This document shows, piece after piece, positions 3,293 through 31,218 of a stretch of 64,000 nt of DNA (the stretch's first letter is position 1; each line of letters opens with the position of its first letter). The notes under the pieces are model-generated. The model saw nothing but the letters and a program-made list of their open reading frames with translations, had not been told where the DNA came from and did not search any database. The stretch covers positions 248,001 to 312,000 of the forward strand of contig OZ037837.1 in the NCBI GenBank assembly GCA_964035575.1. The letters run 5' to 3'. The DNA comes from Rhynchopus sp. YZ270_cl-10 (lineage: Eukaryota). The translations under genes were made by a program, and so were the position numbers.

Positions 3293-4384
3293 TAAAAAAA
3301 CAAAAACATTACCAACTGATCTCCTTACCAATCTACTATATTGTTTTCATCGACCAGCCATCAGTACATCTGAAAAAAAAAGTTTGTAAAAATACAAGAA
3401 GAGCAATGCCTACTGATAGGTGGAAATGTTCGGAGGAAAATAGTTGAGGATATTTATTTTTAGTTTTTTTGTACAATGAATCGTTGATGAGGCACATTGT
3501 AACGGAAAGGAGGGGGGAAGTTGCGAATTGAATAATTATTTTTTGTTGCATCAACAATCAGCTACCGAGGTAGGATCTGTACACAATGTCGCCCTAAGGC
3601 TTTGTACTTAATCGGTATGGACGGAGGCCATCCTCAACCCGAGAAAGTAGCTTTTATTTGTTGATTTGCATTCAAAGTGCATTTTTTTTTTTGAGAAGAT
3701 GAACCCTAAGCCCCACATGCTTGTCTCACCCACAAATGTGCCCCCTGTAAAGGGAACAATGAATAATCAGAACAAAAGAAAAACAGCAAGAAAGAGCATG
3801 TGTTCCACTGGAGGCGGCTCTGTGACGAAGAACCTTCCACCCAGGGCCAGGGCCAGGGCCGGACTACTGAGTTATACCCCGTGTGACCCTTTTCGAGATG
3901 GGCCCCGAAAAAGCCCTATGAAGAAAGACTGTCACGCAAAATAGGGAAAGGGAAAGGGAAAGGGAAAGGAGATCTGAGATAGATAGAGAGTACCTAAAAG
4001 ACCCGCGAAGGGCGAACAGCAATGATGAAAACGGAGAGGAGGGAAGGGGGATACTTTTATCTCGAAATAGGCGCTACGATGAGGGGGGCGAATGTGGAAG
4101 CCGAAACAACCCAAAACAAATTCCAACAAAAAATCTGATGAAGATGGTGTGGTGATTTGGTGAGGGTAGAGACTGAAACATAAACGGACCCCGGCCAACC
4201 AGGACAAAGCCTGAGGAAAATCAAATAAATATTCTGCCAAATAGCAGTGTGCGTGCCATGTCAAATCAAAAGAACGGTAGTCTCTATCAAAGATCTCCCA
4301 ACACGCAGCGAAGCTGCTCCGCTAAAGCGTGTTTCAGGGGAAAGGGAAAGGGAAAGGGAAAATTTGGCGTTTATATGTCACATA

Positions 4385-7745: not shown

Positions 7746-10700
7746 CTACATCTCAAAGGTTTCGTTGTGAACGTCCGCTTTCATCCAGGGGTACTGACCT
7801 GCATACGCTGACACAGCCTTCTTCGCCGCACCAGTCAGTGCATGTGGCCCACAGGTGAAAACTGCCAAACTCTCGAAATCCTTTGGGTCACCAAAACCTT
7901 CAAGGACCTTAGCAACTTCCGGCCTCCCGTGCTTGATTTTGCTTCCGAGCATTCCAAACACGTTGTTGTTTCCTTCCACAGCCCCCGTGAAGTTGATCTG
8001 CAGGTCCAGGTCTGGCGCAGCATTGATGCACGAGATCAGCTCGTCTGCAAGGAGCTCAAGAAGCTCGACGTCACGTACAGCCCACACAAGGCTCACTCTG
8101 TGCTGTACTGTCTCTCCCTTGGCTGGCATCTCCTGGTACACGCTGCGTGTCTTCAGGTAGTGCAGTGCAGCAACCAACGGTGTCACACCCACACCACCGC
8201 CAACAAGCAGCACTCTGTCGTAGTTGAGCAGGTCCATCGAGGCAACACCGCAGGGCTCAGACACACGCAGCAGCGAACCTGCCTGCAGGTCTCGGATCAT
8301 GTTGTCCGTCGACGTTCCTTTGCCCATGTTCTTCACAACAATGGAAAAGCCATACGTCTCCGGGTGCACACGCATCACAGAGAAGGGGTGCGACTGCAGC
8401 ATGTTCGACAGCGACTTCACACGCACCCTGATGTACATCCCTGGGAAGATGTCACGGAAGTTGAAGATCGGCTCTCTTGTGGGCGGAACTGCAGGAGCGA
8501 CACGCAGCTTCGAGTATGCCTGCGAAGGGGTGTCGTCCTTGGACACCACTGTGTAGTAGGGCACGATGAAGTTGCGCACAACCCTCTGTGCAATCAGGGA
8601 GAGTATTCCCGGGATCAGGAACAGCACTGTGGATGTGGTGTGGATGATGGCGAAGACGAGGATCAACGGAATGAAGCACCAATGCGCCATCAGGAAGAAG
8701 TGGTACGCACCCCTGCGCACAGGCGGCAGGGACGTCACACACAGCGCAAACATGAAGATAATAGCAAGCGTCCCTGCAAGGTTGTTCACATCCCCACCAC
8801 CCCATTTAAATGCGTTCTCGCCGTCCACAATGTACATCACACCGTGCAGTGTCCCGACTGCCATGAACAGAAACCCGATGATGCCGTGGAAGAACACAAC
8901 CTTCTCGTGAGGCATCCCAAAGCAGATCCAGATCCAGCTCTGCCTCCCAGACGGCATCGAGAAGCTCATGCCCAGGAGCAGCTGCGCAACGTGGCCGAGG
9001 GACTTGTACCACACCAGCCTGTCCTCGTTCGCGTAGTAGAAGCACACTGCCGCGCCTGCCCACATCACTCCCACCACGTAGACACCCACTCCCTTCACCA
9101 TCATCCTACCCAGGAACCGTGGTGCCTCAAACGCCTTGCAGCAGGACAGCTTTGTCAGTGGCACGAAGATCGCAGGCAGCAGCAGCAGCACAAACGTGAG
9201 GATCAGGTACACCAGCTTGTTCTTCCCCACCGAAGCTGAGGCACCAGTGAAAAAGTTGATCCGCTTGCTCCCGAAGCTTCCGCCAGCCTCGTGTGTGTCC
9301 AGGTTTCCAACTGTGTACGGCCCGTACGCCCAGATCACGTCCTGCATTTTGTCAACGATGACAGTGTCGGCAGGGTCCATTGTGTTCACCTTGCGCGAGA
9401 ACGTGTAGTCTGTCGCACCCACGATGCTGTACGAAAGCACGTCGTTCAGCACGTCCTGCACCTGAACAACGTACCCAGAGCAGTGACCATCAAAGCACGA
9501 AGACTGCGAGCATGTGTAAGTGTCCGCATCCGCCATGCTCGTCCCAAACCCAAAGGCACACCACAGACCCGGGCTGCATGTAAAGACGTACGTGATGACG
9601 TCGCCTGTCATGCTCCACGTCATGCTGTACTGTTGTGCAAACGAAACTGAGTATGTCGGTCCAGCCTGCCCAACAACGGGTGCGGGTGTCGGAGGTGCTG
9701 GTGTTGCGGGTGCGACATTCGTGGAGAGCAAGATAGTCGTGGCACCCTTTGTCGCATGTGTCAAACGGATGTCCTCACCCACACCCACACCCCAGATAAG
9801 CGGCTCCGTACCCTGCACAAGCACTTTGTCAATAGAGTCACCAGTGTTCATCAAACGTGTCATCGTGAAGACGGTCCTCCCGTTTGCGGTCACTGCGTTC
9901 ACGTTGTCCAGGTTCTGCACCGCATCACGTGGTGGTTGGAACAGCCCCGCACAGTGAGCATCCTCACACGATCCAGGCGTGGTTGTGGAGCACGTGATTG
10001 TGTCTGCGTCACTCATGCTTGCGCCAAACCCGATGGAACACCACTTTGTGGAAATGCAGTCGAGTGTCATCAACAGTGTTGTCCCGTCTGTGCTCATTGA
10101 CCACTCAAACGACATGTCTTGGTTTGGCTTAAAGAACTGACTTCCAGGGGTGGAACCAGTCCCCGATTGACCAGGTGCCGGTGGTGTGGGTGGCATGGGG
10201 GTTGGCGGTGAAGGACCAGGCTGGCTGGTGACGGGTGGGGACGGTGTGGGCGGGCAAGCGTTGAGCGTGATGTCTGCATCGTCTGCCTCAGGGTGCTCCA
10301 GCCACGTCCCGTCGTTGGGGCTGCCGTACCCCACAGCCCAGCCAAGCTCGAACTGTCTGCCTGACTGCAGGACGTAGTCGTGTGAATCACCTGTCGACAG
10401 CCTTCTCCGGAAGACCACTGTACGCGCTGTCCTCGACACAAAGACACCATCCTGCTGCTCGTCCACACCAGAGGGTGCGGCCTCAGGCACAGTCATGATG
10501 TTGTAGTCCACGATCTTGTCCTGCGACAGGTCCCAAGCAAGAATGTCGTAGTTCTGCATCTCGTCACCAGTCGTCCGGAACCCGATGGACCCGTACTCGT
10601 ACGTGCCCGTGATTCTAACTGTGAACTGCACCGCCTCGTCAGCACCCAGAGAACCCATTTCGTAGTCGATCGTCATCTCGTTCGCTGAGAGGATGCGTGT

Positions 10701-11252
10701 CCCACCACACCCACGCACCCACACAGAGTTCGAGGGCGGCGGTGTTGCAGGAGGCTCGTTGATCGTCAGAAGAATTGTTGCACCTGACTTCTTCGTGTGT
10801 GTGGTCCTGATGTCGAGGTTCGGCCCAATGCCCCAAATGATAGGTGTGGTGCCAAGAACAAGCACTCTGTCCACAGAGTCACCAGTGTTCATCAGACGTG
10901 TCATTGTGTAGGTCGTCTTCCCGTTGCTCGTGGTGGCAGTGATGCTGTCCAGGTTCTGCACTGCGTCGCGTGGTGGCTGGAACAGCCCCGTACAGTGAGC
11001 ATCCTCACACGTGCCTCCTGCTGTGGTGGAGCAAGTGATGGTGTCTGCATCGCTCATGCTTGAGCCAAAGGCAACGGAACACCACTTATCAAAGTCGCAG
11101 ATCAGCGACATCGACATCGTGTTGCCGTCACTGCTGAGCGACCACTCAAACGTCATTTCGCTTGTGGGAGTGAACGACTGCACAAATCCTGACACTGGCA
11201 GAACTGATGCCATAAAAATAGCAAGAAACGGCAGCACCATGTTGGTATGCAT
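7746..11252 (-). CDS. Ferric-reductase (FRE/NOX-like) membrane oxidoreductase with four N-terminal DOMON domains
   Basis: Signal peptide MVLPFLAIF...; four DOMON repeats with Met (SMSDAD-type) and C-terminal His; heme-binding TM His residues (FFHG, TLHG, MAHW, IIHT); FAD motif HPFS; NAD(P)H motifs GGGVGVTP and CGP; terminal ETFEM. Start 11252 or 11240. Confidence 0.9.
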   Translation of the reverse strand: MHTNMVLPFLAIFMASVLPVSGFVQSFTPTSEMTFEWSLSSDGNTMSMSLICDFDKWCSVAFGSSMSDADTITCSTTAGGTCEDAHCTGLFQPPRDAVQNLDSITATTSNGKTTYTMTRLMNTGDSVDRVLVLGTTPIIWGIGPNLDIRTTHTKKSGATILLTINEPPATPPPSNSVWVRGCGGTRILSANEMTIDYEMGSLGADEAVQFTVRITGTYEYGSIGFRTTGDEMQNYDILAWDLSQDKIVDYNIMTVPEAAPSGVDEQQDGVFVSRTARTVVFRRRLSTGDSHDYVLQSGRQFELGWAVGYGSPNDGTWLEHPEADDADITLNACPPTPSPPVTSQPGPSPPTPMPPTPPAPGQSGTGSTPGSQFFKPNQDMSFEWSMSTDGTTLLMTLDCISTKWCSIGFGASMSDADTITCSTTTPGSCEDAHCAGLFQPPRDAVQNLDNVNAVTANGRTVFTMTRLMNTGDSIDKVLVQGTEPLIWGVGVGEDIRLTHATKGATTILLSTNVAPATPAPPTPAPVVGQAGPTYSVSFAQQYSMTWSMTGDVITYVFTCSPGLWCAFGFGTSMADADTYTCSQSSCFDGHCSGYVVQVQDVLNDVLSYSIVGATDYTFSRKVNTMDPADTVIVDKMQDVIWAYGPYTVGNLDTHEAGGSFGSKRINFFTGASASVGKNKLVYLILTFVLLLLPAIFVPLTKLSCCKAFEAPRFLGRMMVKGVGVYVVGVMWAGAAVCFYYANEDRLVWYKSLGHVAQLLLGMSFSMPSGRQSWIWICFGMPHEKVVFFHGIIGFLFMAVGTLHGVMYIVDGENAFKWGGGDVNNLAGTLAIIFMFALCVTSLPPVRRGAYHFFLMAHWCFIPLILVFAIIHTTSTVLFLIPGILSLIAQRVVRNFIVPYYTVVSKDDTPSQAYSKLRVAPAVPPTREPIFNFRDIFPGMYIRVRVKSLSNMLQSHPFSVMRVHPETYGFSIVVKNMGKGTSTDNMIRDLQAGSLLRVSEPCGVASMDLLNYDRVLLVGGGVGVTPLVAALHYLKTRSVYQEMPAKGETVQHRVSLVWAVRDVELLELLADELISCINAAPDLDLQINFTGAVEGNNNVFGMLGSKIKHGRPEVAKVLEGFGDPKDFESLAVFTCGPHALTGAAKKAVSAYAGQYPWMKADVHNETFEM

Positions 11253-11292
11253 ACGGGAATTCCTGCAATGGTGTGTGAGGTGTGAGGTGTGA

Positions 11293-11455
11293 GGGGAGAT
11301 CTGGTGTACAGATCGTGATCCATCGATGAGGTCCCAAAAGCAAAAATAAAACAATGTGAGGAGGGAGTTTCGTCTACTGTGACGTGCAGAGGAAAGGAAA
11401 ACACACCGGGGGGGGGAAATAATTTGTGAAAACTATTCCTGATGAAGGTGGTGTA
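11293..11455 (-). mobile_element. Short remnant of YR retroelement family B
   Basis: Diverged match to 17095-17207 continuing through GGAAAACACACC into a match to 21316-21358. Confidence 0.8.
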
Positions 11456-13424: not shown

Positions 13425-14178
13425 GTTTTTGTAGCAAATGCCAGCTGGTCTGAAGAGTGATCTGACCATATTCCCCAGGTATAACTGGTACTCAAAAAAT
13501 GAATTGGCGAAGGAATCTTGCACTTTTGACCATCACACATTACATGTGTTTTTAAGGCAAAAATGACCGAAAAAGCTGCTTTTTGGCTGAATGCCAACCT
13601 TCAAAAATATTGTCATTTTTTTATAACGACTGGCAAAACATTTTTTTTTTGCCCACAATATCTCCTAACTATCCGATTTTCTGGTCCGGTAATTTTTTAG
13701 AAGAACAAACAATTTTTCAAATTTTTCATTTTTTTGGTCAAATCCAGCCTATGGTGAGGGTGTGTGTGGGTGGGTAGTGTGTGTGGGTGTGGGTGGCGCA
13801 CATCCTTATAGTAAAAACAAAAAAACTAACGTTTTTTAGAATTTAAATCTGAACTGGAGTGTGTGTACTGGGCAGTTTCACTCCCCAGTACACACACTCC
13901 AGCTAACTGCACTGGGTTTTCAGGCGAAAAGTGGCCTGTTGAAAAAGTGGTGTTTTTGTAGCAAATGCCAGCTGGTCTGAAGAGTGATCTGACCATATTC
14001 CCCAGGTATAACTGGTACTCAAAAAATGAATTGGCGAAGGAATCTTGCACTTTTGACCATCACACATTACATGTGTTTTTAAGGCAAAAATGACCGAAAA
14101 AGCTGCTTTTTGGCTGAATGCCAACCTTCAAAAATATTGTCATTTTTTTATAACGACTGGCAAAACATTTTTTTTTTG
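13425..14178. repeat. Identical 227-bp direct repeat (13425-13651 / 13952-14178)
   Basis: Base-for-base match at offset 527; the second copy is cut at its T10G tract by element A. Confidence 0.9.
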
Positions 14179-14413
14179 TATACAACAGACGAAGCGGTAC
14201 GCGTACGGTTGTAAAGAAATAATACAGACCGAAATGTTTGGGCGTCTTCGGTTCGAATGATTGGAATTGTGTGTGTAGTTCAGACATAAATACTGGCTCT
14301 TCTATCTTGTTCTTTTATTCATTGTTTTCCTTTCATTGCCCTTTGCTTGTGCTCCCCGACTCCAATTCAACCAACACTTACAGAGGGGGGTCAAAAAGTT
14401 ATTAGCGTTTTTC

Positions 14414-14446
<33 letters not shown>

Positions 14447-14449
<3 letters not shown>

Positions 14450-17100
14450 CCGTTTGAGGGCAGATCCAGAGACACTTTTGTTTTGGATGAGGTGGACTGG
14501 GTGAGCGCTAGACCTTTGCCTATTCCGGCGCAGCCCGCTCTCCTTCAACATGGTTGCGTCTTCCCCTCATGCCCCGTCGCTCATACCTCGCAGTATTGCT
14601 GGATCTGCGGATACGGCGCCCATCAGCAGTGTGTCAAGGATAAGCTCCCCACGCAAGCCATCGCCGCCGCTTTTCTCGTCAATTACCACACCGGTGAGTT
14701 TACCTGCCCTGTATGCGCCTGGGTGGACGAGGAGCCGGCCGATGTAGACCCTGTTGCGAACCTGCCTCAGCCGCCACTACACCAGGATCCTGAGCCTATT
14801 CCGCAGGGGGACCCGATTCAGGACCAGCCGCAGCCTCAGTTGGCACAGCTCATTGCACAGCTCATCGCACAGCAGCAGGACCAGCCGCCACCGCAGCTAC
14901 CCGTACCGCAGGAACAGCAGCAGCCAGGGCACGTGGCGCAGCATCCGCAGCCGCCTGTGCTCCCGGCGCAGCATCCCGTACATCAGAACCAGCAGCAGCC
15001 AGGGCACGTGGCGCAGCATCCGCAGCCGCCTGTGCTCCCGGCGCAGCATCCCGTACATCAAAACCAGCAGCAGCCAGGGCACGTGGCGCAGCATCCGCAG
15101 CCGCCTGTGCTCCCGGCGCAGCTCCCAGGACAGCCGAATCAGCAGCCGCCTCCGCAGATGGCGCAGCTTCCTGCCCAAGGTCTCGCGCAGGCCATCGCGC
15201 AGCTACTCGGGCCTCACGCGGCCCCCCCGCCGGGTCCGCAGCAGCAGCAGCAGCAGCAGCAGCAGCCGGCACAGCTGATCGCGCAGCTCCTGGCCCTACC
15301 GGCCCAACAGCCCCCTCCTGCCCAGCAAGCCCAGCCGCCGGCCCCGGGCGCGGCTCAGCAGCAGGGGGTCCCTCAGCAGGCGCAAGCCGTGCCCCAGCTT
15401 GATGCGCTAGCGCCGATCCTGCAGCAACTCTTGGCTCCGCAGCTGGCCCTACAAAACGTCATCCGGGACGTGGCCCAGCTGCGGAGCCAAGCCGGTATGG
15501 CCCTCCCCCACAATTTTAACCCCTTTTGTGCCATTGATTGGCGTCCCTTCCTCCACAACCCACAGAAGATCGGCGTACTTCGCTGGAAGCTGAAGGAGGA
15601 AGGCGGCGCACCCGCGGTTGCCTTGCGCTCCCTCCCTGCCGCCGCTAGCGCAGAAGATTGTGCCCTCGCACAAGCGCACGACAGAGTGCACGCCACTCTC
15701 TCGGGAATGCGCCGCGAGGACCCCCCCGCCAACGACGACCGCTTGTCCGACCTCCACCAACTGCTCACTTGGGCATATCGGTGTTTGTTGGTCAAGAAGT
15801 ATGATCTCGCAACGGGACATGCTTACCTTGTGCTGGCACTCGAGAAGGATTGGCAATCCTTTTCGACGGGCCACCAGGCACGCTACTCCGACCAGGCCAT
15901 ACGGACTGGGAAGGACGCGGCCCTGGATCGCAAGGACCGGTTTCGAGGGTCGCGGGGGTCGGGGAACAAGCGAGAGAGGGATACCGATAGGGAGCAGGGA
16001 AAGGGGGGGAAGCAGGGGGGGAAGCAGGGGGGGAAGCAGGGGGGGAAGCAGGGGGGGAAGCAGGGGGGGAAGCAGGGGGGGAAGCAGGGGGGGAAGCAGG
16101 GGGGGAAGCAGGGGGGGAAGCAGGGGGGGAAGCAGGGGGGGAAGCAGGGGGGGAAGCAGGGGGGGAAGCAGGGGGGGAAGCAGGGGGGGAAGCAGGGGGG
16201 GAAGCAGGGGGGGAAGCAGGGGGGGAAGCAGGGGGGGAAGCAGGGGGGGAAGCAGGGGGGGAAGCAGGGGGGGAAGCAGGGGGGGAAGCAGGGGGGGAAG
16301 CAGGGGGGGAAGCAGGGGGGGAAGCAGGGGGGGAAGCAGGGGGGGAAGCAGGGGGGGAAGCAGGGGGGGAAGCAGGGGGGGAAGCAGGGGGGGAAGCAGG
16401 GGGGGAAGCAGGGGGGGAAGCAGGGGGGGAAGCAGGGGGGGAAGCAGGGGGGGAAGCAGGGGGGGAAGCAGGGGGGGAAGCAGGGGGGGAAGCAGGGGGG
16501 GAAGCAGGGGGGGAAGCAGGGGGGGAAGCAGGGGGGGAAGCAGGGGGGGAAGCAGGGGGGGAAGCAGGGGGGGAAGCAGGGGGGGAAGCAGGGGGGGAAG
16601 CAGGGGGGGAAGCAGGGGGGGAAGCAGGGGGGGAAGCAGGGGGGGAAGCAGGGGGGGAAGCAGGGGGGGAAGCAGGGGGGGAAGCAGGGGGGGAAGCAGG
16701 GGGGGAAGCAGGGGGGGAAGCAGGGGGGGAAGCAGGGGGGGAAGCAGGGGGGGAAGCAGGGGGGGAAGCAGGGGGGGAAGCAGGGGGGGAAGCAGGGGGG
16801 GAAGCAGGGGGGGAAGCAGGGGGGGAAGCAGGGGGGGAAGCAGGGGGGGAAGCAGGGGGGGAAGCAGGGGGGGAAGCAGGGGGGGAAGCAGGGGGGGAAG
16901 CAGGGGGGGAAGCAGGGGGGGAAGCAGGGGGGGAAGCAGGGGGGGAAGCAGGGGGGGAAGCAGGGGGGGAAGCAGGGGGGGAAGCAGGGGGGGAAGCAGG
17001 GGGGGAAGCAGGGGGGGAAGCAGGGGGGGAAGCAGGGGGGGAAACAGGGGGGGAAGCAGGGGGGGAAGCAGGGGGGGAAGCAGGGGGGGAAGCAGGGGAG
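14447..17100 (+). CDS. Family A Gag-like ORF, 5' part (PHD-like finger, Q/P-rich region, GGKQ repeats); continues at 21502-22675
   Basis: C-x4-C...CxxC-x4-H-xx-C...CxxC at the N-terminus; 3x75-bp internal repeat; array variation (AAG/AAA) is synonymous in the GGKQ frame. Confidence 0.75.
16003..17094 (+). repeat. 12-bp tandem array (GGGGGGGAAGCA) x~91
   Basis: Directly visible; one AAA variant near 17043. Confidence 0.97.
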
Positions 17101-17322
17101 ATCTGGTGTACAAATAGTGATCCGTCGATGAGGTCCTGAAAGCGCAACAAAAACAATGTGAGGAGGGGTTTCGTTTATTGTGACGTACGAGGGAAGGAAA
17201 ACACACCATATACCGCTTTGGTACATCGTTTCCAGTCCGATTGACATGTGTACGACCACCACACTCTTTTGAAGAAAGGACAAGAGAAAAAGAGAAAGAA
17301 TAAAAGAAATCACAAATGCATA

Positions 17323-19866
17323 TCACTCTGAAAAACCAAAAGAATCAACCTTCTTGTGAACACGGTCCCAACACAGCGGTACCGCTATCGTTCCCTCAGA
17401 GAGATGTGTGCGCCGGGATAACTGATCCGCAGTGCTGTTCTCCTCTGAGGCGATCCACTCAACACGAAGGTGGTGTGGTTGCACAAAAGAAAAAATATAA
17501 CGTAAAAATAGGTTCCCTAGACGAGACTTTGTATGTCCCCGTCTGATCGCATGCGCCAAGCCCTCGTTGTCCACCAGCAGGAGGGTCCCACTCTTTGAGG
17601 AACCGCTCTCCAATGCAGCTCTGATGCCCTTCATCGCAGCTTCTGCCTCCAGCAGGAAGATGTCGCGGTGCGTCGCAGCCTGCACCCACTGTCCCCAGTC
17701 CGCCCCGGCCTCGGCATCGTCCAGGTGCTGCCACACAATGCCCCAACCAGTCGTACTCGCGTCCGTCCACACCACCGTGTCCCATGCAGAAGCCGGCTCC
17801 GGCAATGAAAAATCCCGAATGGGGCGCACGAAAGCATCGACAATCTCAGCCATCTCCCTCCGCAAGTCATCCGGGATCACCACCTCTACGTCCCAGTCCA
17901 GTTCGCCTCTCACGATCTTCGTGGACCACCCACTGAGGCACCGGAGTATGGCGTCGAAGTGACACAGCGGAACGCCCAGGACATGTAGCACTCGCATAGC
18001 AATACCCACCATCTGCCATATGCGCCGAATCGACAACTTCCACGCAGACGCAAATGAAACAAAAATCAGCATCACCTTCTCCCTCCACGTGCTCGGAAAC
18101 CGCAATACACCCTGCTCAGGTGACCACTCCACACCAATGTACTCCAAAGTCCGCACTGGGCTGAGGCACGATTTCTTCTCGTTTATTTCTGCTCCTGCAA
18201 AACTGAACCGTTCCAGGATCCCTGCTACCGATGCCTGAACTCCTTCACAAGACTCTCCGAAGACAAGGATGTCGTCCAAGTACACCATCGCACGCACGCC
18301 CACTGCTCTACCCACAAGCGCTTCCGCTGTGTTCTGTGCTATGTAGGGGGCCACAGACCAGCCCATCGGCACCCGAGTCCATCTGTACCAGCTTTGCCCG
18401 ACGCGAAAACAGAAGAAAGAGGAGACGTTGTTGTGGATAGGAAGTTGGTGGAAGAATCCTTTCAGGTCTATTTTTGCCAACCACGTAGCCTTCCTGTGCT
18501 TCAGGATGTGGAACAGGTGCGGCGGGGCGAAGAGGTGGAACTTTGGGGGCTTTGGCATCACGCAGTTGATGGGACGGCCGTCAATCACCGTGCGGTGAAT
18601 CAGCGGATCAGACTTCGGAACCGTAAACACCTTGACCACTCCGCGGACACACTCACGTTTCGTCACCTTCATGCAGACACCAGCCTTCAAACATGCCGAC
18701 ACAAAAGAGGGAGGGAGGTTGGATTTCGGTCCTGGGATGGGGATCTTGCCTGACTTCACCTCCGAAATAGCGTTAGGGTTCGTCATCCAGCTTGCGAAAT
18801 GTGGGTCCATACCCGCTTCCGTCGCCAGTTGCGACAGACGTTGCACGTTGATGGTGGAGGTCGGGAAGGAGTCAAGCTTTGCCTGTCTGGGGGGTGGCTT
18901 ACCCAAATCGGGCCACGTCAGGGAAGACTCTCCGGACTGCTCACCCGATACCTCATTCTCATGTTCCTCCAATATCCCCCGATAGCCCTCCTGCAGACCC
19001 CGAATCACTGAAGAGAAGACAGCAGATTCGCCTCCAGCGTTCGTCGACCCCGTGTGTTCGTCCTCAGGTAACGCACCGTCTCTGCTTCGTTCGCGTGTCT
19101 GAGGAGCTCCCGCAGCTCGCTTCTTTCCACTCCCGTCTTCTCCACCTCCTGGATCGCCCCCCGTCGTAACGAATGTAGCCATGCTGCGTTGGGAAACACC
19201 TTCTTCATAGCACGTTTCAGGCTTTCGTACACATTTGAATTCCCGCCGAAGACTAGCTGTTTTTCGTCCTTGATGCTTCGCATGAATCTCACCGCTACCG
19301 CAGTCAGTCTCCCTGGAGGCATGTTGATGGGGGGCCGCCATCCCTTGCATCCTTTCTCCCGCGCAAAGAATTCCCCCCCCACGGTGTCCAGCTTCTGCGG
19401 TGTGTCCGAGCGGAATTCCCTCCAATCTACCTTCGTGATGAAGCGCAGGTCGGGAACGCGAGCTCTCGATACCCATGCAATCGCGGCCAGTGCTGCAGCC
19501 GGCTTGTTCCCTTGCGACCACAGCGTCTCTATTGCAGTTGAAGCTTCTGTGGTGGTCATTGGTGGTGCCTGTCGCGGGCGGATCATCGTGCTCAAACGTA
19601 TAAGTCCTTTCTTTGCCTCCAGCAGCTTCCGCGTTCGAACTCCTCGCATGCCCATGCTCAGCGACTTTCGCACGATCACCTCCACGTAGGTCTGTACAGT
19701 CTTCGGAGAAGCCGATGCCAGCATCCTGTGCGCGTAGCCGATGATGAGGTCGTCGGGGGGGAGGCCGTCGCGCTGCGTCGCACGCCACTCCATAAACCGG
19801 TCGAAGACCCGGTCTTGCTCCGCCCGGTACTTCGGGGCGTTCGCAAACTGACCGAGCTGGTCCCAT
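17323..19866 (-). CDS. Reverse transcriptase / RNase H (family B)
   Basis: VFTVPK, IDGRPIN, KIDLKGFFHQ, RVPMGW, VYLDDIL, LEYIG; RNase H WTDAS..GWG, IFLLE, LVDN, NSTADQLSR. True start uncertain. Confidence 0.93.
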   Translation of the reverse strand: MGPARSVCERPEVPGGARPGLRPVYGVACDAARRPPPRRPHHRLRAQDAGIGFSEDCTDLRGGDRAKVAEHGHARSSNAEAAGGKERTYTFEHDDPPATGTTNDHHRSFNCNRDAVVAREQAGCSTGRDCMGIESSRSRPALHHEGRLEGIPLGHTAEAGHRGGGILCAGERMQGMAAPHQHASRETDCGSGEIHAKHQGRKTASLRREFKCVRKPETCYEEGVSQRSMATFVTTGGDPGGGEDGSGKKRAAGAPQTRERSRDGALPEDEHTGSTNAGGESAVFSSVIRGLQEGYRGILEEHENEVSGEQSGESSLTWPDLGKPPPRQAKLDSFPTSTINVQRLSQLATEAGMDPHFASWMTNPNAISEVKSGKIPIPGPKSNLPPSFVSACLKAGVCMKVTKRECVRGVVKVFTVPKSDPLIHRTVIDGRPINCVMPKPPKFHLFAPPHLFHILKHRKATWLAKIDLKGFFHQLPIHNNVSSFFCFRVGQSWYRWTRVPMGWSVAPYIAQNTAEALVGRAVGVRAMVYLDDILVFGESCEGVQASVAGILERFSFAGAEINEKKSCLSPVRTLEYIGVEWSPEQGVLRFPSTWREKVMLIFVSFASAWKLSIRRIWQMVGIAMRVLHVLGVPLCHFDAILRCLSGWSTKIVRGELDWDVEVVIPDDLRREMAEIVDAFVRPIRDFSLPEPASAWDTVVWTDASTTGWGIVWQHLDDAEAGADWGQWVQAATHRDIFLLEAEAAMKGIRAALESGSSKSGTLLLVDNEGLAHAIRRGHTKSRLGNLFLRYIFSFVQPHHLRVEWIASEENSTADQLSRRTHLSEGTIAVPLCWDRVHKKVDSFGFSE

Positions 19867-20549
19867 TCCAGCGTCCGGTGCAGCAGCTTCCCCAGTACCT
19901 TCCCGTCTCGTTCCGCAAACACCAAGTCCTCCACAGCTTTCGCCCTCTGCAGCGACATCTTCCTCGTCCCAAGCGACATGTGCTCCGGTAGGTGTGGTGG
20001 GGGCAGGACCTCCTTGGGCGGGGTCACCGGGTCCGTCACCAGTTTCGGCCCTGTTCGCCCCGTGTCGCTCTGTCGCACTGTGACCCAGTTCCTTGGGGAG
20101 TTCCTCGTCCCTGTTCGTCCCTTTTCTCCCTTCTGTCGTCCCTCGTCCCTCTTTGTTTGTTGTAGTTGATGTGATTTTTGACGTCGATTCACCCCATAGT
20201 TCGTTCTGTTCGACCCAGTATTTTGACCCTTGTTTCCCCCGGAGTTGTAGATGGTGTTGTTGTTGATGTTGACGCGGTGGTGGCTACTGGCGAAAAGGCT
20301 TCCCCCCTTTGCCTCCTTTCCGTCCGAAGGTCGCCGATGGGTCGAACCTCGTGCGCTTCGATCCCCTGTCGTTGTAGTTGTTGGAGGAGGTGGTGCTGTG
20401 GCGTCTCTTCGTGCCTGCAAAGCGCGCATTCGCTGCCGTCGCTGCCAGCATCGCTGCACGGCGTTGGGGGGTGGTCGAAGTGCCCATCGATGTACGGGAA
20501 CGGAACGCCCTGGCCGCCTCCAGCCCCATCGTGAAACGGTAGTGCACAC
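19005..20549 (-). CDS. Tyrosine recombinase (family B)
   Basis: Catalytic set intact: SRARVPDL (R), HSLRRG (HxxR), LRH, TVRY. Start uncertain; low-complexity N-terminus overlaps gag. Confidence 0.9.
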   Translation of the reverse strand: MCTTVSRWGWRRPGRSVPVHRWALRPPPNAVQRCWQRRQRMRALQARRDATAPPPPTTTTTGDRSARGSTHRRPSDGKEAKGGSLFASSHHRVNINNNTIYNSGGNKGQNTGSNRTNYGVNRRQKSHQLQQTKRDEGRQKGEKGRTGTRNSPRNWVTVRQSDTGRTGPKLVTDPVTPPKEVLPPPHLPEHMSLGTRKMSLQRAKAVEDLVFAERDGKVLGKLLHRTLEWDQLGQFANAPKYRAEQDRVFDRFMEWRATQRDGLPPDDLIIGYAHRMLASASPKTVQTYVEVIVRKSLSMGMRGVRTRKLLEAKKGLIRLSTMIRPRQAPPMTTTEASTAIETLWSQGNKPAAALAAIAWVSRARVPDLRFITKVDWREFRSDTPQKLDTVGGEFFAREKGCKGWRPPINMPPGRLTAVAVRFMRSIKDEKQLVFGGNSNVYESLKRAMKKVFPNAAWLHSLRRGAIQEVEKTGVERSELRELLRHANEAETVRYLRTNTRGRRTLEANLLSSLQ

Positions 20550-21288
20550 ATAGCAGGTCGTCCAGGAGGATCACGAGGAGGTCCCCCATGTTCTTCCCCT
20601 TCAGAATCTTCTGGATCAGGTTCAGAGTTCCGCGTGCCGCGTCCCGTGTGTCCCCTTCCTTATCAGGCACGTATTTTGCGAGTTGCTCCAACAGTTCGGT
20701 TTGGCCAAACCTGTCGAGTTCTTGCCAACGCGTCGGATTGAGTGCCACGGTTTCAGCGTCGGGCCCCATGTCGTCACTGCGGATGTCGCTGCGGTCGTCC
20801 GGTTGGTCGTCTGGGAAGTCCTGTGCGGCCTCGAAAGCGGCGATGCGGTCCTGCCCATCAGTCTCGCGTACCACCGGCGCAAACACAAAACGTTTCTTCA
20901 CTGCCTCGGCCGCCACTGCCTGCTCCTCTGTCTCCACAGAGGCCTTCGGAGAAGATACGTCCTCAGAGCAAGGGAAAGATGCCGCGTCCTCGCCACTCAG
21001 CAACTGCGCAAAGGTCACGTCCCCAAGGCCGTTCCTCACCGTGGCCAGAAAGAGGGCGAGACGGCGGGGCTTCGTCTTCTCCCACGCCGCCTCATTCGAC
21101 CTGGTGACCTCAATCATCACCACACCCCCCAATCCTGCCAGGGTTGCCAGGATGTAGTCCCCCGGCAAGAAGGAATCCTTCAGCGCCGTCTTCACCACAT
21201 CTGGCGCTCCCGCACAACATACGCGCATCACTTCACTCACCTTGAAGTGACAGGCCTTGCGCCCCTCAAACTCAGCTGTCAAGTCCAT
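20284..21288 (-). CDS. Gag-like ORF1 (family B)
   Basis: First ORF of the element; ATG (MDLTAEF) directly after the 24-bp repeat; basic tail ending RKGGKGGKPFRQ. Assignment is positional. Confidence 0.7.
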   Translation of the reverse strand: MDLTAEFEGRKACHFKVSEVMRVCCAGAPDVVKTALKDSFLPGDYILATLAGLGGVVMIEVTRSNEAAWEKTKPRRLALFLATVRNGLGDVTFAQLLSGEDAASFPCSEDVSSPKASVETEEQAVAAEAVKKRFVFAPVVRETDGQDRIAAFEAAQDFPDDQPDDRSDIRSDDMGPDAETVALNPTRWQELDRFGQTELLEQLAKYVPDKEGDTRDAARGTLNLIQKILKGKNMGDLLVILLDDLLCVHYRFTMGLEAARAFRSRTSMGTSTTPQRRAAMLAATAANARFAGTKRRHSTTSSNNYNDRGSKRTRFDPSATFGRKGGKGGKPFRQ

Positions 21289-21501
21289 ATTCGTACGAGG
21301 GAAGGAAAACACACCGGGGAAACAAATTTGTGGAAAAAATTCCTGATGAAGGTGGTGTGTTTTGACTTTCCCGTTCCAACCTTTGCAGAGCAAAGAGGTA
21401 ATAAAAGCAAAAATGGACCAAAGCATCTTATACTATCATCTACAGTAACACCAGATCTCCCCATGTCGCAGCAAAGCTGCTTTAACAAGTTAACTGGGGA
21501 G

Positions 21502-22675
21502 GGGGAAGCAGGGGGGGAAACAGGGGGGGAAGCAGGGGGGGAAGCAGGGGGGGAAGCAGGGGGGGAAACAGGGGGGGAAGCAGGGGGGGAAACAGGGGGG
21601 GAAACAGGGGGGGAAGCAGGGGGGGAAGCAGGGGGGGAAACAGGGGGGGAAACAGGGGGGGAAGCAGGGGGGGAAACAGGGGGGGAAACAGGGGGGGAAG
21701 CAGGGGGGGAAGCAGGGGGGGAAGCAGGGGGGGAAGCAGGGGGGGAAGCAGGGGGGGAAGCAGGGGGGGAAGCAGGGGGGGAAGCAGGGGGGGAAGCAGG
21801 GGGGGAAGCAGGGGGGGAAGCAGGGGGGGAAACAGGGGGGGAAGCAGGGGGGGAAGCAGGGGGGGAAACAGGGGGGGAAGCAGGGGGGGAAACAGGGGGG
21901 GAAACAGGGGGGGAAGCAGGGGGGGAAGCAGGGGGGGAAGCAGGGGGGGAAGCAGGGGGGGAAGCAGGGGGGGAAGCAGGGGGGGAAACAGGGGGGGAAG
22001 CAGGGGGGGAAGCAGGGGGGGAAGCAGGGGGGGAAACAGGGGGGGAAGCAGGGGGGGAAGCAGGGGGGGAAACAGGGGGGGAAACAGGGGGGGAAGCAGG
22101 GGGGGAAACAGGGGGGGAAACAGGGGGGGAAGCAGGGGGGGAAGCAGGGGGGGAAGCAGGGGGGGAAGCAGGGGGGGAAGCAGGGGGGGAAGCAGGGGGG
22201 GAAGCAGGGGGGGAAGCAGGGGGGGAAGCAGGGGGGGAAGCAGGGGGGGAAGCAGGGGGGGAAGCAGGGGGGGAAGCAGGGGGGGAAGCAGGGGGGGAAA
22301 CAGGGGGGGAAGCAGGGGGGGAAGCAGGGGGGGAAACAGGGGGGGAAACAGGGGGGGAAGCAGGGGGGGAAACAGGGGGGGAAACAGGGGGGGAAGCAGG
22401 GGGGGAAGCAGGGGGGGAAGCAGGGGGGGAAGCAGGGGGGGAAGCAGGGGGGGAAGCAGGGGGGGAAGCAGGGGGGGAAGCAGGGGGGGAAGCAGGGGGG
22501 GAAACAGGGGGGGAAGCAGGGGGGGAAGCAGGGGGGGAAGCAGGGGGGGAAGCAGGGGGGGAAGCAGGGGGGGAAGCAGGGGGGGAAGCAGGGGGGGAAG
22601 CAGGGGGGGAAGCAGGGGGGGAAACAGGGGGGGAAACAGGGGGGGAAACAGGGGACAAAACCTGCGACGCAATGA
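21502..22675 (+). repeat. 12-bp tandem array x~96 (mixed AAG/AAA), the 3' part of family A gag, ending GGKQGTKPATQ-stop
   Basis: Directly visible; TGA at 22673-22675 in the GGKQ frame. Confidence 0.93.
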
Positions 22676-25395
22676 CTAGGGTCCGCTCTTCCGAGCAACT
22701 CTCATCAAGATTCTTTTTACTCTCACCTTCTTTTTCCCCCCCCCTCCAAGTGGGGACGTTCCCGTCAGGTAGTAGCGTCTTTGGGAACTTTTCAGAGGGA
22801 ACAGATCGAGGCCTCTCTCAGGGAAACCCTCGTTCAGTCCCTCGCCCCGTCCACCCAGTCCTCGATGCAGAGTGTTTTACGCACATACCTGCAATTCAAG
22901 GAAAACTGGGAGTGGGCGACGGGCCAGTCCCTGGAACACGCGGTGGCGGTACTCTTGTTTGCAGAAAAGAAGCGGGGAGAGGGGGCAAAAAAGTCCACAG
23001 TCCTTCAGTATACCATGTCCCTAGCGGGTGCACTGAAGAGGCTGGATGGAGACCTGATTTCCCACTCCCAGCTCGTACAAGATTATCGCCAGGCCCTCAA
23101 AAGAGGCGGCGCATTGCTCTCGGAGCGCCAGGCGAAACCTGCCCTGTTTTCACAGGTGCAGACAGTTCTGGATCGGCTTCCGATGGGGGTGCTCCGTCTC
23201 GCCATTGCTTTGTGTTGGGCGGGGGCGGCTCGTGCGTCGGACGTGCTGCGCTTGAGAAGGTCGGAGCTAGTGATTCGGTCGGACTCGTCGATCCAGGTGC
23301 ACTGGACAAAGACGAAGTCCGATCCTTATCAACTAGGTCGCTTCTCGGGAGTGGTGCTCCGTCCTCAAGAGACCCGTCTTCTTTTTGTTCACCTCTCCTC
23401 CCTCACCCCCCAACAACAACTTTTCCCTTTTTCTCTAACGACAAAGGTCATCTCGGACGAGTTGAAGAAGACCTGCCCGGCGCTCACGTCCCACTCTCTC
23501 AGAAGGGGGGCGGTGCAGCACCTGGTGGGCCGGAATGTGGACCTCGAGATGATTCGCCAGCTCACCCGTCACGCGGACGTGAACTCCGTCGTGCGTTATG
23601 CGCACGAGGCGGGGGGTTCGGTCGCGGCGAGTTCGGCGGAAACATCGCGACTCCTCCTATCCTAAATCCCGCTTTCCCCTCCCCTTTATTTACACCGTGT
23701 TCTCAAAGCTTGTTTACTAATCCTTCTTTTTATTCTGCTCCATTTTCTCCTTCCCCCCCTCCCTTTTCTGTGTCTACGTGTGAGGAAGAAGACTACGGGC
23801 CGGGCCTCGACTCGCTATATGATTCTGTTTGTGTGGTTAAGATTCATAAGTCGAGTGTCAGGGCCCCGGCTGTGGTTAGCCTTTCTGAGAAGCTTGCACC
23901 CATTTGTTCCTCCTTTCTGCATTTGGATAGAGTGAAAGAACTGGACAGAGAAGGTGAGCTCAAAGGGATTTTAGATCTTATTACTGATCCCAAATGTTTT
24001 TACTCAGCCTTCAGACCGGGGTCTCTGGACCTCATTTTTTCCAACCCCAGTGTTTTTTCGTCGTCTATCTCCAGAAACATGGCACACCATCTGGACAGGT
24101 TATTGGAATACGGGGTTGTTAAACGTGTGTCAGCTCGTCAAACAGTGGTATTGCACGCATTCACCGTACCTAAGAAATCTGCGGGTGTTCGTTTTGTCGC
24201 AGATGGGCGTAAATTGAATAAGTTAATGTACCGGCCTCCTGAGATGCTTCTTCCGAAGATACCTCAGGTGATCGACAGAGTTCTGGAGTCTTCCTGGGCA
24301 GTACTTGCGGACGGCAAAAGTTGGTTTTACCAATTTGGCCTACACGAGGAAATCCAGGCTTTTTTCGGTATCAATCTGGGTCATCAGAGAGGAGATTTCA
24401 TCCAAACCAGACTCATTGCTATGTGCATGGGGTGGTCTTTCGCACCTTGTATTGCTCACCGCACTGCGAGGGTGCTCCTCCCTGATGACTCGGGTGTTAC
24501 CTGGGTGGACAACTTCATTGTTTTAGATAAGTCTCGCGAGGCTGTTACTTTTTCGTTTTCTCAGTTTTTAGCACGTTGTAAACACGTGAATGCTGTGCTA
24601 AACTTAGAAGATGAGTTTTACGGTGAACCGTTGCAAGTTTTTTGTGCCTTAGGAATTGAGTTTGATTTGGTGAATCACCGTTTTCGCGCTGAGCACAAGT
24701 GGGTCACCAAGTTGTTAAACTGTGAGGAATGGGAAAAGGTCAAGTCAAATTCTTGCACTATTCGCCAATTTTTCAAAGTTTTTGGTTCTTTGGTGTGGAA
24801 CTCTTATTCTGTTCGTTCACCCCTTTGCTACCTTCCATCTTCCCTTTCTTTTATCCGTGATGTGGCGCGGACCACTACCCAGTCACCCGAGGCGTGGGAC
24901 TTACCCCTCGATGTCAGGAGCTCTACCCTCGCCGAGCTCTCACTCCGTATGAGCGAAGTAGAGGTGAACAATTGGCAAGGGAAGCGTCCGACACAGGAGG
25001 TAACTGTGTGGTCTGATGCGTCTCAGGAAGGGTGGGCGGCGGTTTTCGAAGGTGAGAAGGAAACGGTCGCTCAGGGTCTGTTTACAGAGAACCCCGAGTG
25101 GCATATTTATATTAAAGAAATTTTTGCGGCGGCTAAAGCCATCCAACTTACCGCTTCCATGTTTAATAATAAAAAAGTTTTGTTGATGGTTGACAACATG
25201 GCTGCTGTGTACAGCATTCAACGGGGCCATTCGTCCAACTTCATCTCAAATACACTCTTGGCCAAATTATTTCGAATCGCTGAAGAAGCGAATTTGTATA
25301 TCGTGTGCACTTGGGTATCTACTTTGGTTCAGAAGGCGGATCCCTTTTCACGGGATTCGAAAGCCAAGGATCCTATTTTATTGGATGAGTTGTAA
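22672..25395 (+). CDS. Reverse transcriptase / RNase H (family A)
   Basis: AFTVPKK, RFVADGRKLN, LADGKSWFYQ, MCMGW, TWVDNF, ALGIEFD; RNase H WSDAS..GW, IYIKE, MVDN, ADPFSR. ATG overlaps the gag stop (ATGA); start uncertain. Confidence 0.9.
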   Translation: MTRVRSSEQLSSRFFLLSPSFSPPLQVGTFPSGSSVFGNFSEGTDRGLSQGNPRSVPRPVHPVLDAECFTHIPAIQGKLGVGDGPVPGTRGGGTLVCRKEAGRGGKKVHSPSVYHVPSGCTEEAGWRPDFPLPARTRLSPGPQKRRRIALGAPGETCPVFTGADSSGSASDGGAPSRHCFVLGGGGSCVGRAALEKVGASDSVGLVDPGALDKDEVRSLSTRSLLGSGAPSSRDPSSFCSPLLPHPPTTTFPFFSNDKGHLGRVEEDLPGAHVPLSQKGGGAAPGGPECGPRDDSPAHPSRGRELRRALCARGGGFGRGEFGGNIATPPILNPAFPSPLFTPCSQSLFTNPSFYSAPFSPSPPPFSVSTCEEEDYGPGLDSLYDSVCVVKIHKSSVRAPAVVSLSEKLAPICSSFLHLDRVKELDREGELKGILDLITDPKCFYSAFRPGSLDLIFSNPSVFSSSISRNMAHHLDRLLEYGVVKRVSARQTVVLHAFTVPKKSAGVRFVADGRKLNKLMYRPPEMLLPKIPQVIDRVLESSWAVLADGKSWFYQFGLHEEIQAFFGINLGHQRGDFIQTRLIAMCMGWSFAPCIAHRTARVLLPDDSGVTWVDNFIVLDKSREAVTFSFSQFLARCKHVNAVLNLEDEFYGEPLQVFCALGIEFDLVNHRFRAEHKWVTKLLNCEEWEKVKSNSCTIRQFFKVFGSLVWNSYSVRSPLCYLPSSLSFIRDVARTTTQSPEAWDLPLDVRSSTLAELSLRMSEVEVNNWQGKRPTQEVTVWSDASQEGWAAVFEGEKETVAQGLFTENPEWHIYIKEIFAAAKAIQLTASMFNNKKVLLMVDNMAAVYSIQRGHSSNFISNTLLAKLFRIAEEANLYIVCTWVSTLVQKADPFSRDSKAKDPILLDEL
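22781..23665 (+). CDS. Tyrosine recombinase (family A)
   Basis: AARASDV (R), TKTK, HSLRRG, TRH, VVRY; frame is open back to the gag stop; nested within the RT frame. Confidence 0.92.
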   Translation: MGTFQREQIEASLRETLVQSLAPSTQSSMQSVLRTYLQFKENWEWATGQSLEHAVAVLLFAEKKRGEGAKKSTVLQYTMSLAGALKRLDGDLISHSQLVQDYRQALKRGGALLSERQAKPALFSQVQTVLDRLPMGVLRLAIALCWAGAARASDVLRLRRSELVIRSDSSIQVHWTKTKSDPYQLGRFSGVVLRPQETRLLFVHLSSLTPQQQLFPFSLTTKVISDELKKTCPALTSHSLRRGAVQHLVGRNVDLEMIRQLTRHADVNSVVRYAHEAGGSVAASSAETSRLLLS

Positions 25396-25642
25396 TTCTT
25401 TTTACGGACTGGTTGGTCTTTATTTGTATAACAGTTTCGCACCGTTTTGTATCTCCACCTTAATTCTTCTAATTCGTTTCGTCTATTCCCGTTAAATTTG
25501 TTGTGGGAACTTGTCTGTAAGAATTGTTTTTCTGTTTATCTGTTCGCGTGGCGTCCCTCAGGGTCCTTAGGGTCCTGGAGGATGCGTCCAATGAAAATCA
25601 CGTCGTGTAGAAGAGTTCAAGAATGTAGGTTTTATTATTTTT

Positions 25643-25900
25643 GTATACAACAGACGAAGCGGTACGCGTACGGTTGTAAAGAAATAATACAGACCGAAAT
25701 GTTTGGGCGTCTTCGGTTCGAATGATTGGAATTGTGTGTGTAGTTCAGACATAAATACTGGCTCTTCTATCTTGTTCTTTTATTCATTGTTTTCCTTTCA
25801 TTGCCCTTTGCTTGTGCTCCCCGACTCCAATTCAACCAACACTTACAGAGGGGGGTCAAAAAGTTATTAGCGTTTTTCATTTAAAAAAAAAAAAAAAAAA
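25643..25900 (+). repeat. Second copy of the family A 5' end, head-to-tail with the 3' end
   Basis: Identical to 14178-14435 up to the poly(A) tract, then unrelated sequence; third copy at 30595-30855. Confidence 0.9.
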
Positions 25901-26442
25901 GAAAGAAGGAAAGGAGATAATTGGCGTTATTGTTGTTATTGGGATTTACAGTCTCACATTGTCTTTTTCGTTCGTTGTTCTATTTAGACACGTTGGGCCT
26001 AATGCGCCTGCACTGTTCGATGCTAGTATGTAAGCACAGAGCACCTAGGGTCTGACTATTACGCGCAGTACCGTCGAGGGACGTACTGTTGCAACGAACT
26101 TCACACCAAGAAGGAATCCTTCAGCGCCGTCTTCACCACATCTGGCGCTCCCGCACAACATACGCGCATCACTTCACTCACCTTGAAGTGACAGGCCTTG
26201 CGCCCCTCAAACTCAGCTGTCAAGTCCATATTCGTACGAGGGAAGGAAAACACACCGGGGAAACAAATTTGTGGAAAAAATTCCTGATGAAGGTGGTGTG
26301 TTTTGACTTTCCCGTTCCAACCTTTGCAGAGCAAAGAGGTAATAAAAGCAAAAATGGACCAAAGCATCTTATACTATCATCTACAGTAACACCAGATCTC
26401 CCCATGTCGCAGCAAAGCTGCTTTAACAAGTTAACTGGGGAG

Positions 26443-27628
26443 GGGGAAGCAGGGGGGGAAACAGGGGGGGAAGCAGGGGGGGAAGCAGGGGGGGAAGCAG
26501 GGGGGGAAACAGGGGGGGAAGCAGGGGGGGAAACAGGGGGGGAAACAGGGGGGGAAGCAGGGGGGGAAGCAGGGGGGGAAACAGGGGGGGAAACAGGGGG
26601 GGAAGCAGGGGGGGAAACAGGGGGGGAAACAGGGGGGGAAGCAGGGGGGGAAGCAGGGGGGGAAGCAGGGGGGGAAGCAGGGGGGGAAGCAGGGGGGGAA
26701 GCAGGGGGGGAAGCAGGGGGGGAAGCAGGGGGGGAAGCAGGGGGGGAAGCAGGGGGGGAAGCAGGGGGGGAAACAGGGGGGGAAGCAGGGGGGGAAGCAG
26801 GGGGGGAAACAGGGGGGGAAGCAGGGGGGGAAACAGGGGGGGAAACAGGGGGGGAAGCAGGGGGGGAAGCAGGGGGGGAAGCAGGGGGGGAAGCAGGGGG
26901 GGAAGCAGGGGGGGAAGCAGGGGGGGAAACAGGGGGGGAAGCAGGGGGGGAAGCAGGGGGGGAAGCAGGGGGGGAAACAGGGGGGGAAGCAGGGGGGGAA
27001 GCAGGGGGGGAAACAGGGGGGGAAACAGGGGGGGAAGCAGGGGGGGAAACAGGGGGGGAAACAGGGGGGGAAGCAGGGGGGGAAGCAGGGGGGGAAGCAG
27101 GGGGGGAAGCAGGGGGGGAAGCAGGGGGGGAAGCAGGGGGGGAAGCAGGGGGGGAAGCAGGGGGGGAAGCAGGGGGGGAAGCAGGGGGGGAAGCAGGGGG
27201 GGAAGCAGGGGGGGAAGCAGGGGGGGAAGCAGGGGGGGAAACAGGGGGGGAAGCAGGGGGGGAAGCAGGGGGGGAAACAGGGGGGGAAACAGGGGGGGAA
27301 GCAGGGGGGGAAACAGGGGGGGAAACAGGGGGGGAAGCAGGGGGGGAAGCAGGGGGGGAAGCAGGGGGGGAAGCAGGGGGGGAAGCAGGGGGGGAAGCAG
27401 GGGGGGAAGCAGGGGGGGAAGCAGGGGGGGAAGCAGGGGGGGAAGCAGGGGGGGAAACAGGGGGGGAAGCAGGGGGGGAAGCAGGGGGGGAAGCAGGGGG
27501 GGAAGCAGGGGGGGAAGCAGGGGGGGAAGCAGGGGGGGAAGCAGGGGGGGAAGCAGGGGGGGAAGCAGGGGGGGAAACAGGGGGGGAAACAGGGGGGGAA
27601 ACAGGGGACAAAACCTGCGACGCAATGA
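26443..27628 (+). repeat. Duplicated 12-bp array x~97
   Basis: Same AAG/AAA pattern as 21502-22675 with one extra unit. Confidence 0.93.
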
Positions 27629-30348: not shown

Positions 30349-31218
30349 TTCTTTTTACGGACTGGTTGGTCTTTATTTGTATAACAGTTCGCACCGTTTT
30401 GTATCTCCACCTTAATTCTTCTAATTCGTTTCGTCTATTCCCGTTAAATTTGTTGTGGGAACTTGTCTGTAAGAATTGTTTTTCTGTTTATCTGTTCGCG
30501 TGGCGTCCCTCAGGGTCCTTAGGGTCCTGGAGGATGCGTCCAATGAAAATCACGTCGTGTAGAAGAGTTCAAGAATGTAGGTTTTATTATTTTTGTATAC
30601 AACAGACGAAGCGGTACGCGTACGGTTGTAAAGAAATAATACAGACCGAAATGTTTGGGCGTCTTCGGTTCGAATGATTGGAATTGTGTGTGTAGTTCAG
30701 ACATAAATACTGGCTCTTCTATCTTGTTCTTTTATTCATTGTTTTCCTTTCATTGCCCTTTGCTTGTGCTCCCCGACTCCAATTCAACCAACACTTACAG
30801 AGGGGGGTCAAAAAGTTATTAGCGTTTTTCATTTAAAAAAAAAAAAAAAAAAAAAGAAAGAAGGAAAAGAGATAATTGGCGTTATTGTTGTTATTGGGAT
30901 TTACAGTCTCACATTGTCTTTTTCGTTCGTTGTTCTATTTAGACACGTTGGGCCTAATGCGCCTGCACTGTTCGATGCTAGTATGTAAGCACAGAGCACC
31001 TAGGGTCTGACTATTACGCGCAGTACCGTCGAGGGACGTACTGTTGCAACGAACTTCACACCATTTCTCCGACTGTTTAGGTAGCCGCTTACATACAGCT
31101 CACAGGCGTCGCAGGCGGTGCACAAATACATCAGGAAGCACCTCTTGTGCCCCATACACACAGAGGATGTAACTGCCAACAGCGAAGTCCAGGTAGTCGG
31201 AAGAGCACAACTATTAGT

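Follow-up and report, generated by a model that had tools for sequence, protein, structure and literature searches.

How an element can make two enzymes from genes that share one stretch of DNA in different reading frames, and whether a G-rich repeat at the end of the preceding gag gene takes part in this, are the questions raised by a retroelement of Rhynchopus sp. YZ270_cl-10, hereafter called element A. It lies in a stretch of 64,000 nt from contig OZ037837.1 (assembly GCA_964035575.1, positions 248,001 to 312,000, forward strand), hereafter called the window, whose numbering is used throughout. A sequence-only reading of the window had proposed that the repeat, a long array of G7-AAGCA units, may be a G-quadruplex (G4) frameshift switch. 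The comparison of copies and relatives described here points instead to the codons around the gag stop. The array is probably a G/K-rich gag tail that was expanded by accident, and the signal would be the junction itself, where readthrough of TGA CTAG would give a Gag-recombinase fusion and a −1 slip on G_GGA_AAG a fusion of Gag with reverse transcriptase (RT) and RNase H (RH).

Overlapping frames at the gag junction of element A

Element A is likely a VIPER-like tyrosine recombinase (YR) retrotransposon, to judge by the order of its genes (gag-like, YR, RT/RH) and by the overlap of the YR and RT/RH open reading frames (ORFs). All of its parts are on the plus strand. The 5' terminal repeat A1 (14173-14438), which has a poly(A) end and matches 25638-25900 and 30590-30855 with 100 % identity, is followed by an ORF whose unique part translates to 519 amino acids (14447-16002) and which was assigned as gag by its position. 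No Pfam family scored above the cut-off for it, searches for gag homologs in two length classes found none, and the atlas gave only weak unnamed leads. In sequencing run X3 the depth of gag contigs is near that of YR and RT.

The gag frame continues through the repeat into a short tail (22655-22679) that contains an ATG (22672) and ends in the leaky-type stop TGA CTAG (22673-22679). Directly behind this single stop, in frame, is the conserved YR ORF (22676-23665; PF00589, E 1.3e-8), the first ATG of which occurs only at residue 64. Its homology to the related protein P0002 begins at residue 47, upstream of that ATG, which was counted in favour of readthrough. The RT/RH ORF (22672-25395) is in the −1 frame relative to gag and overlaps the entire recombinase gene. 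It has no Pfam match but 27 homologs, of which the named ones are from Diplonema papillatum (45-47 % identity, grouped at 98 % in a quick tree). Its cluster has 11 member sequences, and the top atlas cluster belongs to Euglenozoa. The same N-terminal part of the RT ORF is retained in two proteins from other copies (P0031 and P0037), and two related RT proteins (P0004 and P0022) align to its alternative-frame extension. Identical copies of the gag, YR and long RT proteins encoded in the window are absent from the protein collection searched. P0002, 856 amino acids long, has recombinase and RT fused in one frame; it forms a cluster of one and is possibly a mutated copy.

The YR and RT genes of element A end in TAA and the host genes in TAG or TGA, and the TGA or TAG at the end of gag is therefore a real stop. 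Reassignment of stop codons in the host was rejected on the same grounds.

That the RT frame stays open across the recombinase gene is not due to chance. The frame contains no stop in 329 codons, compared with 13.6 expected, and none of 20,000 synonymous randomisations reached zero. The −1 frame opens after a last TAG (15988-15990), and six bases further on is G_GGA_AAG (15997-16003), upstream of the array and the sole strict heptamer of the canonical type X XXY YYZ (Y = A or U) in the 519 codons of the gag frame. From array 2, the second part of the repeat, onwards the −1 frame is free of stops into RT/RH up to 25395, as the sequence-only reading had stated.

The same junction is found with almost no array. 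A contig of 1,432 nt from run X1 covers 15487-16018 and then continues with the letters of 22655 onward, and is thus a one-unit allele, in which gag ends GKGGKQGTKPATQ, the junction is identical to that of the window and G_GGA_AAG is eleven codons upstream of the stop. A diverged relative of element A has fewer than three units, followed by AAC TGA CTAG.

Most ribosomes would be expected to terminate at the gag TGA and release Gag, some would read through TGA CTAG and make Gag-recombinase, and some would slip by −1 at G_GGA_AAG, just upstream of the repeat, and make Gag-RT/RH. Readthrough in the context UGA CUAG is known (10.1101/2021.04.18.440353).

Gag junctions in related elements

A metagenome scan gave 43 loci, among which 9 contigs start past the junction. 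Of the 31 that were scored 3 were duplicates, leaving 28 junctions: 17 wired like element A, with the recombinase in frame behind gag and RT in −1, 9 wired like element B, a second element of the window, with RT in frame and the recombinase in +1, and 2 wired otherwise. An enzyme ORF lies behind the gag stop and in frame with it in all 28. The stop is always TGA or TAG and never TAA, compared with TAA at 16 of 61 YR and RT ends (p 0.002, a value that overstates the case, as do the others, since the relatives are kin and the counts not independent), and with the A wiring TGA is followed by CT in 12 of 14 cases. A strict heptamer occupies the final two codons of gag in 6 of the 17 relatives with the A wiring and in 0 of the 9 with the B wiring, against a background of 13 among 6,518 codon pairs from the remainder of gag. 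Four heptamers, A_AAA_AAC, U_UUA_AAC, G_GGU_UUU and G_GGA_AAC, are found on separate branches of a quick tree, and these are the four that PMC5009743 names as the most shifty for mammalian ribosomes. In two relatives (L010 and L031) the heptamer ends in AAG and is at a distance from the stop like that in element A.

The relatives with the B wiring have gag ends of another kind. Six of the nine (L001, L002, L004, L008, L027 and L041), with the recombinase in +1, end in TCC-TGA (3), ACC-TGA (2) or CCC-TAG (1), and UCC_UGA is the antizyme +1 site (PMC5009743). In the other three an ATG in the +1 frame lies no more than 4 nt from the stop. A wider reading, which we hold only tentatively, is that in VIPER-like elements ribosomes meet one of three fates at a single gag stop, namely termination, readthrough into one enzyme or a shift into the other enzyme in its overlapping frame, and that this occurs in two swapped wirings, readthrough giving the recombinase and a −1 shift RT, or readthrough giving RT and a +1 shift the recombinase, the latter in several elements at an antizyme-like UCC-UGA. 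In the lineage of element A the unit behind the heptamer, once present in two or three copies, could then add a G4 stimulator, and two or three units may have a small effect on frameshifting.

In seven relatives (L011, L013, L019, L021, L022, L026 and L030) two invariant blocks 15-65 nt after the gag stop are able to pair; within this one clade a double change was seen in 0 of 11 pairs, and no covariation was seen. Seven of the 43 metagenome contigs, 4.0-4.5 kb long, have terminal overlaps as in circular or tandem elements (L009, L010, L012, L021, L033, L034 and L035).

Several observations weigh against double recoding at the junction of element A. PMC5009743 places G_GGA_AAG among the shifty sites of E. 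coli and an archaeal virus and not among the best mammalian ones, and a site ending in AAG may be poor on eukaryotic ribosomes. With one unit only, no significant stimulatory structure was predicted downstream (z −0.35 to −1.0), and a strict heptamer would occur in a window of 13 codons by chance in about 3 % of cases. Within the last 12 gag codons a heptamer was found in 10 of the 17 relatives with the A wiring and in 7 there was none. One further relative with this wiring (L035) has no heptamer and TGA-AT, with which the counts above become 6/18 and 12/15; L024 and L043, looked at together with it, were assigned to neither wiring and do not enter the counts. The diverged relative of element A has a TAA five codons past the TGA and is 58 nt shorter there, both as read from loose sequence ends; it was taken as a copy that may be broken. 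Finally, the relatives scored are far removed from element A, with RT identities of 23-39 %, and the clade of element A itself was compared through proteins.

The sequence-only reading had one mRNA giving Gag, Gag-YR and Gag-RT/RH, the last by a −1 slip within the array or by reinitiation. Readthrough and the −1 slip are favoured by the comparison of the family, and what gains no support from it is the array as shift site and the reinitiation through an ATGA overlap. Reinitiation would leave readthrough as the source of Gag-YR, with RT translated anew from the ATG that overlaps the gag stop. This ATG (22672, overlapping the TGA at 22673) does open an ORF of 907 amino acids, which is also called in P0031 and P0037, and the relative L010 has the same overlap. 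Among TGA-ending relatives of the same wiring, however, the overlap occurs in 1 of 14, which is chance level, and it is missing both in L031, which is close to L010, and in the diverged relative of element A; any codon ending in A creates it. The overlap was thus rejected as evidence, and reinitiation as the route to RT is unlikely.

A slightly poorer candidate still is that YR and RT are made from separate mRNAs, trans-spliced with a spliced leader at pyrimidine tracts, and that no recoding occurs. The spliced leader is present on essentially all mRNAs of D. papillatum (PMC10161547), and pyrimidine tracts with AG, possible trans-splice acceptors, are found on the plus strand at 22711-22750 and 23667-23791. 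Such splicing would leave unexplained the run of 329 codons without a stop where the RT frame overlaps YR, the heptamers, the missing TAA at gag ends and the YR homology before the first ATG. Trans-splicing may nevertheless add to the output of YR.

The repeat array and its length

The sequence-only reading had described the interval 16003-22675 as one array of about 187 units. It is two arrays with element B (minus strand, 17095-21500, 4.4 kb) between them, and the figure of 187 is a reconstruction which assumes that B split a single array. Array 1 (16003-17094) has 91 units, one of them an AAACA variant, and array 2 (21501-22654) has 96 units, 27 of them AAACA, with higher-order repeats in the pattern of variants; both are on the plus strand. 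The G counts at the two ends of B (4 + 5 G) are compatible with such a split, and all units but the split one are exactly G7. The two halves are unlike in composition (AAACA in 1/91 and 27/96 units, Fisher p 4e-8). A third array of 97 units (26442-27607) is contained in a plus-strand tandem duplicate (26107-31063) of 21166-26108, which has 99.7 % identity with the original and differs from it only in homopolymers, one unit and one base. None of the contigs listed bridges the junction at 26107, and the duplicate alone may be an assembly error.

Each unit reads GGKQ in the gag frame, so that array 1 encodes (GGKQ)n, and AAG/AAA is the sole variant and synonymous there, both as proposed earlier. 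The synonymy carries little weight, since the variant is a single mutation that duplication has multiplied, and among the 36 possible substitutions 8 are synonymous anyway. The open frames through the array are likewise trivial, since the unit is without T and every plus frame is necessarily free of stops. Neither property was accepted as evidence of function.

Another explanation is that the array itself is a G4 switch, its length setting the ratio of Gag to Gag-RT. No canonical slippery heptamer is found in the gag frame of either array, and the 27 G_GGA_AAC sites of array 2 are all in the +1 frame. G4Hunter scores are 2.3 for the array and 2.2 for the 25 nt that follow the heptamer, with G4 predicted only for several units, and the unit number does differ among copies. 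RNA G4s are reported to promote frameshifting, in the −1 direction with an efficiency of at most about 7 % when placed downstream of U_UUA_AAC (Yu et al., PMC3919603), and in the +1 direction at codon repeats (PMC12809536). The reporters of Yu et al. resemble element A in having G-tract repeats downstream of a heptamer; they need an efficient heptamer and a spacer of 6-8 nt, whereas the G-tracts of element A start 0-3 or 11 nt away and the one-unit allele has too few tracts. In the same work more G-tracts lowered shifting. In a toy model of uniform slipping over 187 units, ribosomes became distributed among all three frames; at most about 38 % of ribosomes ended in the −1 frame and at least 17 % were lost to the frame that stops at 22677. 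Furthermore, the one-unit allele keeps the junction intact, and a four-tract G3 motif or a tandem repeat longer than 18 nt near the gag end was found in 0 of the 28 relatives. These observations argue against both the array as shift site and the tuning of the ratio by its length, and a switch of this kind is very improbable.

The copy in the window is also interrupted. Read onward from array 1, gag meets a stop at 17131 and the −1 frame one at 17139, both inside B, so a ribosome that starts on gag cannot reach RT, and this copy is unable to make Gag-RT as assembled.

In runs X3 and X4 the gag contigs listed end at 16018-16030, where exits from one or two units would branch. The depth of the array bin was 7,945 in X3 and 12,590 in X4, that of gag 877-950 and that of diverged single loci 95-98 and 76, so that array words are 9-13 times deeper than gag and the array corresponds to about 80-165 single-locus equivalents, contig depth being a rough guide and no true copy number. 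Each 31-mer of the array has 169-192 exact copies in the window alone. The depth agrees with about one long locus rather than nine to twelve copies with 187 units each. In run X5 the estimate was about 580 single-locus equivalents, with all bins inflated; this value and the roughness of the depth measure are to be added to the reservations listed above.

With the one-unit contig and the diverged relative with fewer than three units, the array is likely an expansion at one locus and not a tuned switch. Most likely it is a real local expansion in a dead copy, which probably grew by slippage that G4 formation may have aided. The sequence-only reading had named few units together with a closed −1 frame as the pattern that would speak against a switch; few units were found elsewhere, but the −1 frame stays open. 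Its suggestion that the array is an expanded basic tail of gag agrees with the one-unit allele and the diverged relative, and it had also rightly pointed to the short basic tail of the gag of element B, which ends GRKGGKGGKPFRQ.

The least credible explanation is that the long array arose as an error in assembling a G-homopolymer repeat. In its favour are the lack of an array contig in run X1 (a gap there proves nothing) and the few differences of the duplicate, which are confined to homopolymers, one unit and one base. Against it are the array words, with 9-13 times the depth of gag in X3 and X4, the exact G7 units and the higher-order pattern of variants. A pattern of three units had no match in viral contigs.

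Known elements and other features of the window

Element A resembles the VIPER and TATE elements (Ribeiro et al. 2019, PMC6681497) in its gag-YR-RT/RH order, its YR/RT overlap, its SIRE-like solo A-B remnants and its euglenozoan host, which is likely a diplonemid, and in part in its direct repeats, which would be of the split type; it also fits a description of VIPER-like elements in PMC12278014. It differs from VIPER at its 3' end, where B1 (25580-25640) and A2 (25638-25900) are present, as is A1 at the 5' end, and no B2 follows A2. The right end of the element is rearranged, and A-to-B joints are found in contigs. The VIPER record from Bodo saltans, inspected by eye, has a like layout: G_GGA_AAC precedes the gag TGA by eight codons, and YR follows in frame.

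In retroviral and long terminal repeat (LTR) elements gag-pol recoding relies on a −1 heptamer with a structure or on readthrough as in murine leukaemia virus (MuLV) (PMC5009743), whereas element A appears to combine both routes at one junction; unlike in those elements its two routes would lead to two enzymes in overlapping frames, and the second wiring swaps the routes. A programmed −1 frameshift has been proposed in another group of YR retrotransposons, the Ngaro-like elements (Poulter and Butler 2015, quoted in PMC13003380), where the shift differs in leading from the RT/RH end into YR over a short overlap and with another gene order. The available part of PMC6681497 refers to frameshift only as mutation and has no mention of translation or of a stop codon, and frameshift and readthrough are absent from the text of PMC12278014. 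The literature searches gave no account of ribosomal frameshifting for VIPER of Trypanosoma cruzi, nothing on VIPER in a search combining DIRS, tyrosine recombinase and ribosomal frameshift, and no account of readthrough with frameshifting at the end of a VIPER gag, two key older papers being outside the search.

The junction of the family would be a further form of the recoding already described, and the array belongs to an ordinary type of repeat. How VIPER-like elements make recombinase and RT from overlapping frames is not addressed in the literature searched, and the comparison supplies short and exact junctions at which double recoding can be tested in free-living protists, which are otherwise believed to separate their genes by trans-splicing. 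The array, most likely a runaway repeat in a dead copy, carries little weight, but it illustrates that a G-rich gag tail may seed a minisatellite.

Element B is a second gag/YR/RT-RH element and sits inside the array on the minus strand, with gag at 20284-21432, YR at 19005-20570 in the +1 frame and RT/RH at 17323-20283, in frame behind the gag TAG. Its RT is 25 % identical to that of element A. About 140 nt on its 5' side (21362-21500) are beyond the part common with its remnant and include a 15-nt inverted copy of the other end of B, and the insertion is possibly not clean.

Solo A-B remnants of the SIRE-like type, of the A and B families, are found at 3128-3300 and 11293-11454, the one of the B family sharing sequence with the 5' region of a host gene. 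In runs X3 and X4 the A-family repeat is 10-25 times as deep as the coding part. The minus strand carries host genes and a Tc3-like transposase (7746-11432, 31219-50207, 57967-63546 and 4466-5326), the host genes being a ferric reductase with four DOMON domains, five tandem adenylate-cyclase-like ORFs (one scanned) and two leucine-rich repeat (LRR) ORFs (one scanned). Rfam gave seven weak matches in the window, all far below the gathering score. To the left of element A there is an exact direct repeat of 227 nt (13425-13651 and 13952-14178), and between its two copies a perfect-looking hairpin (13852-13904).

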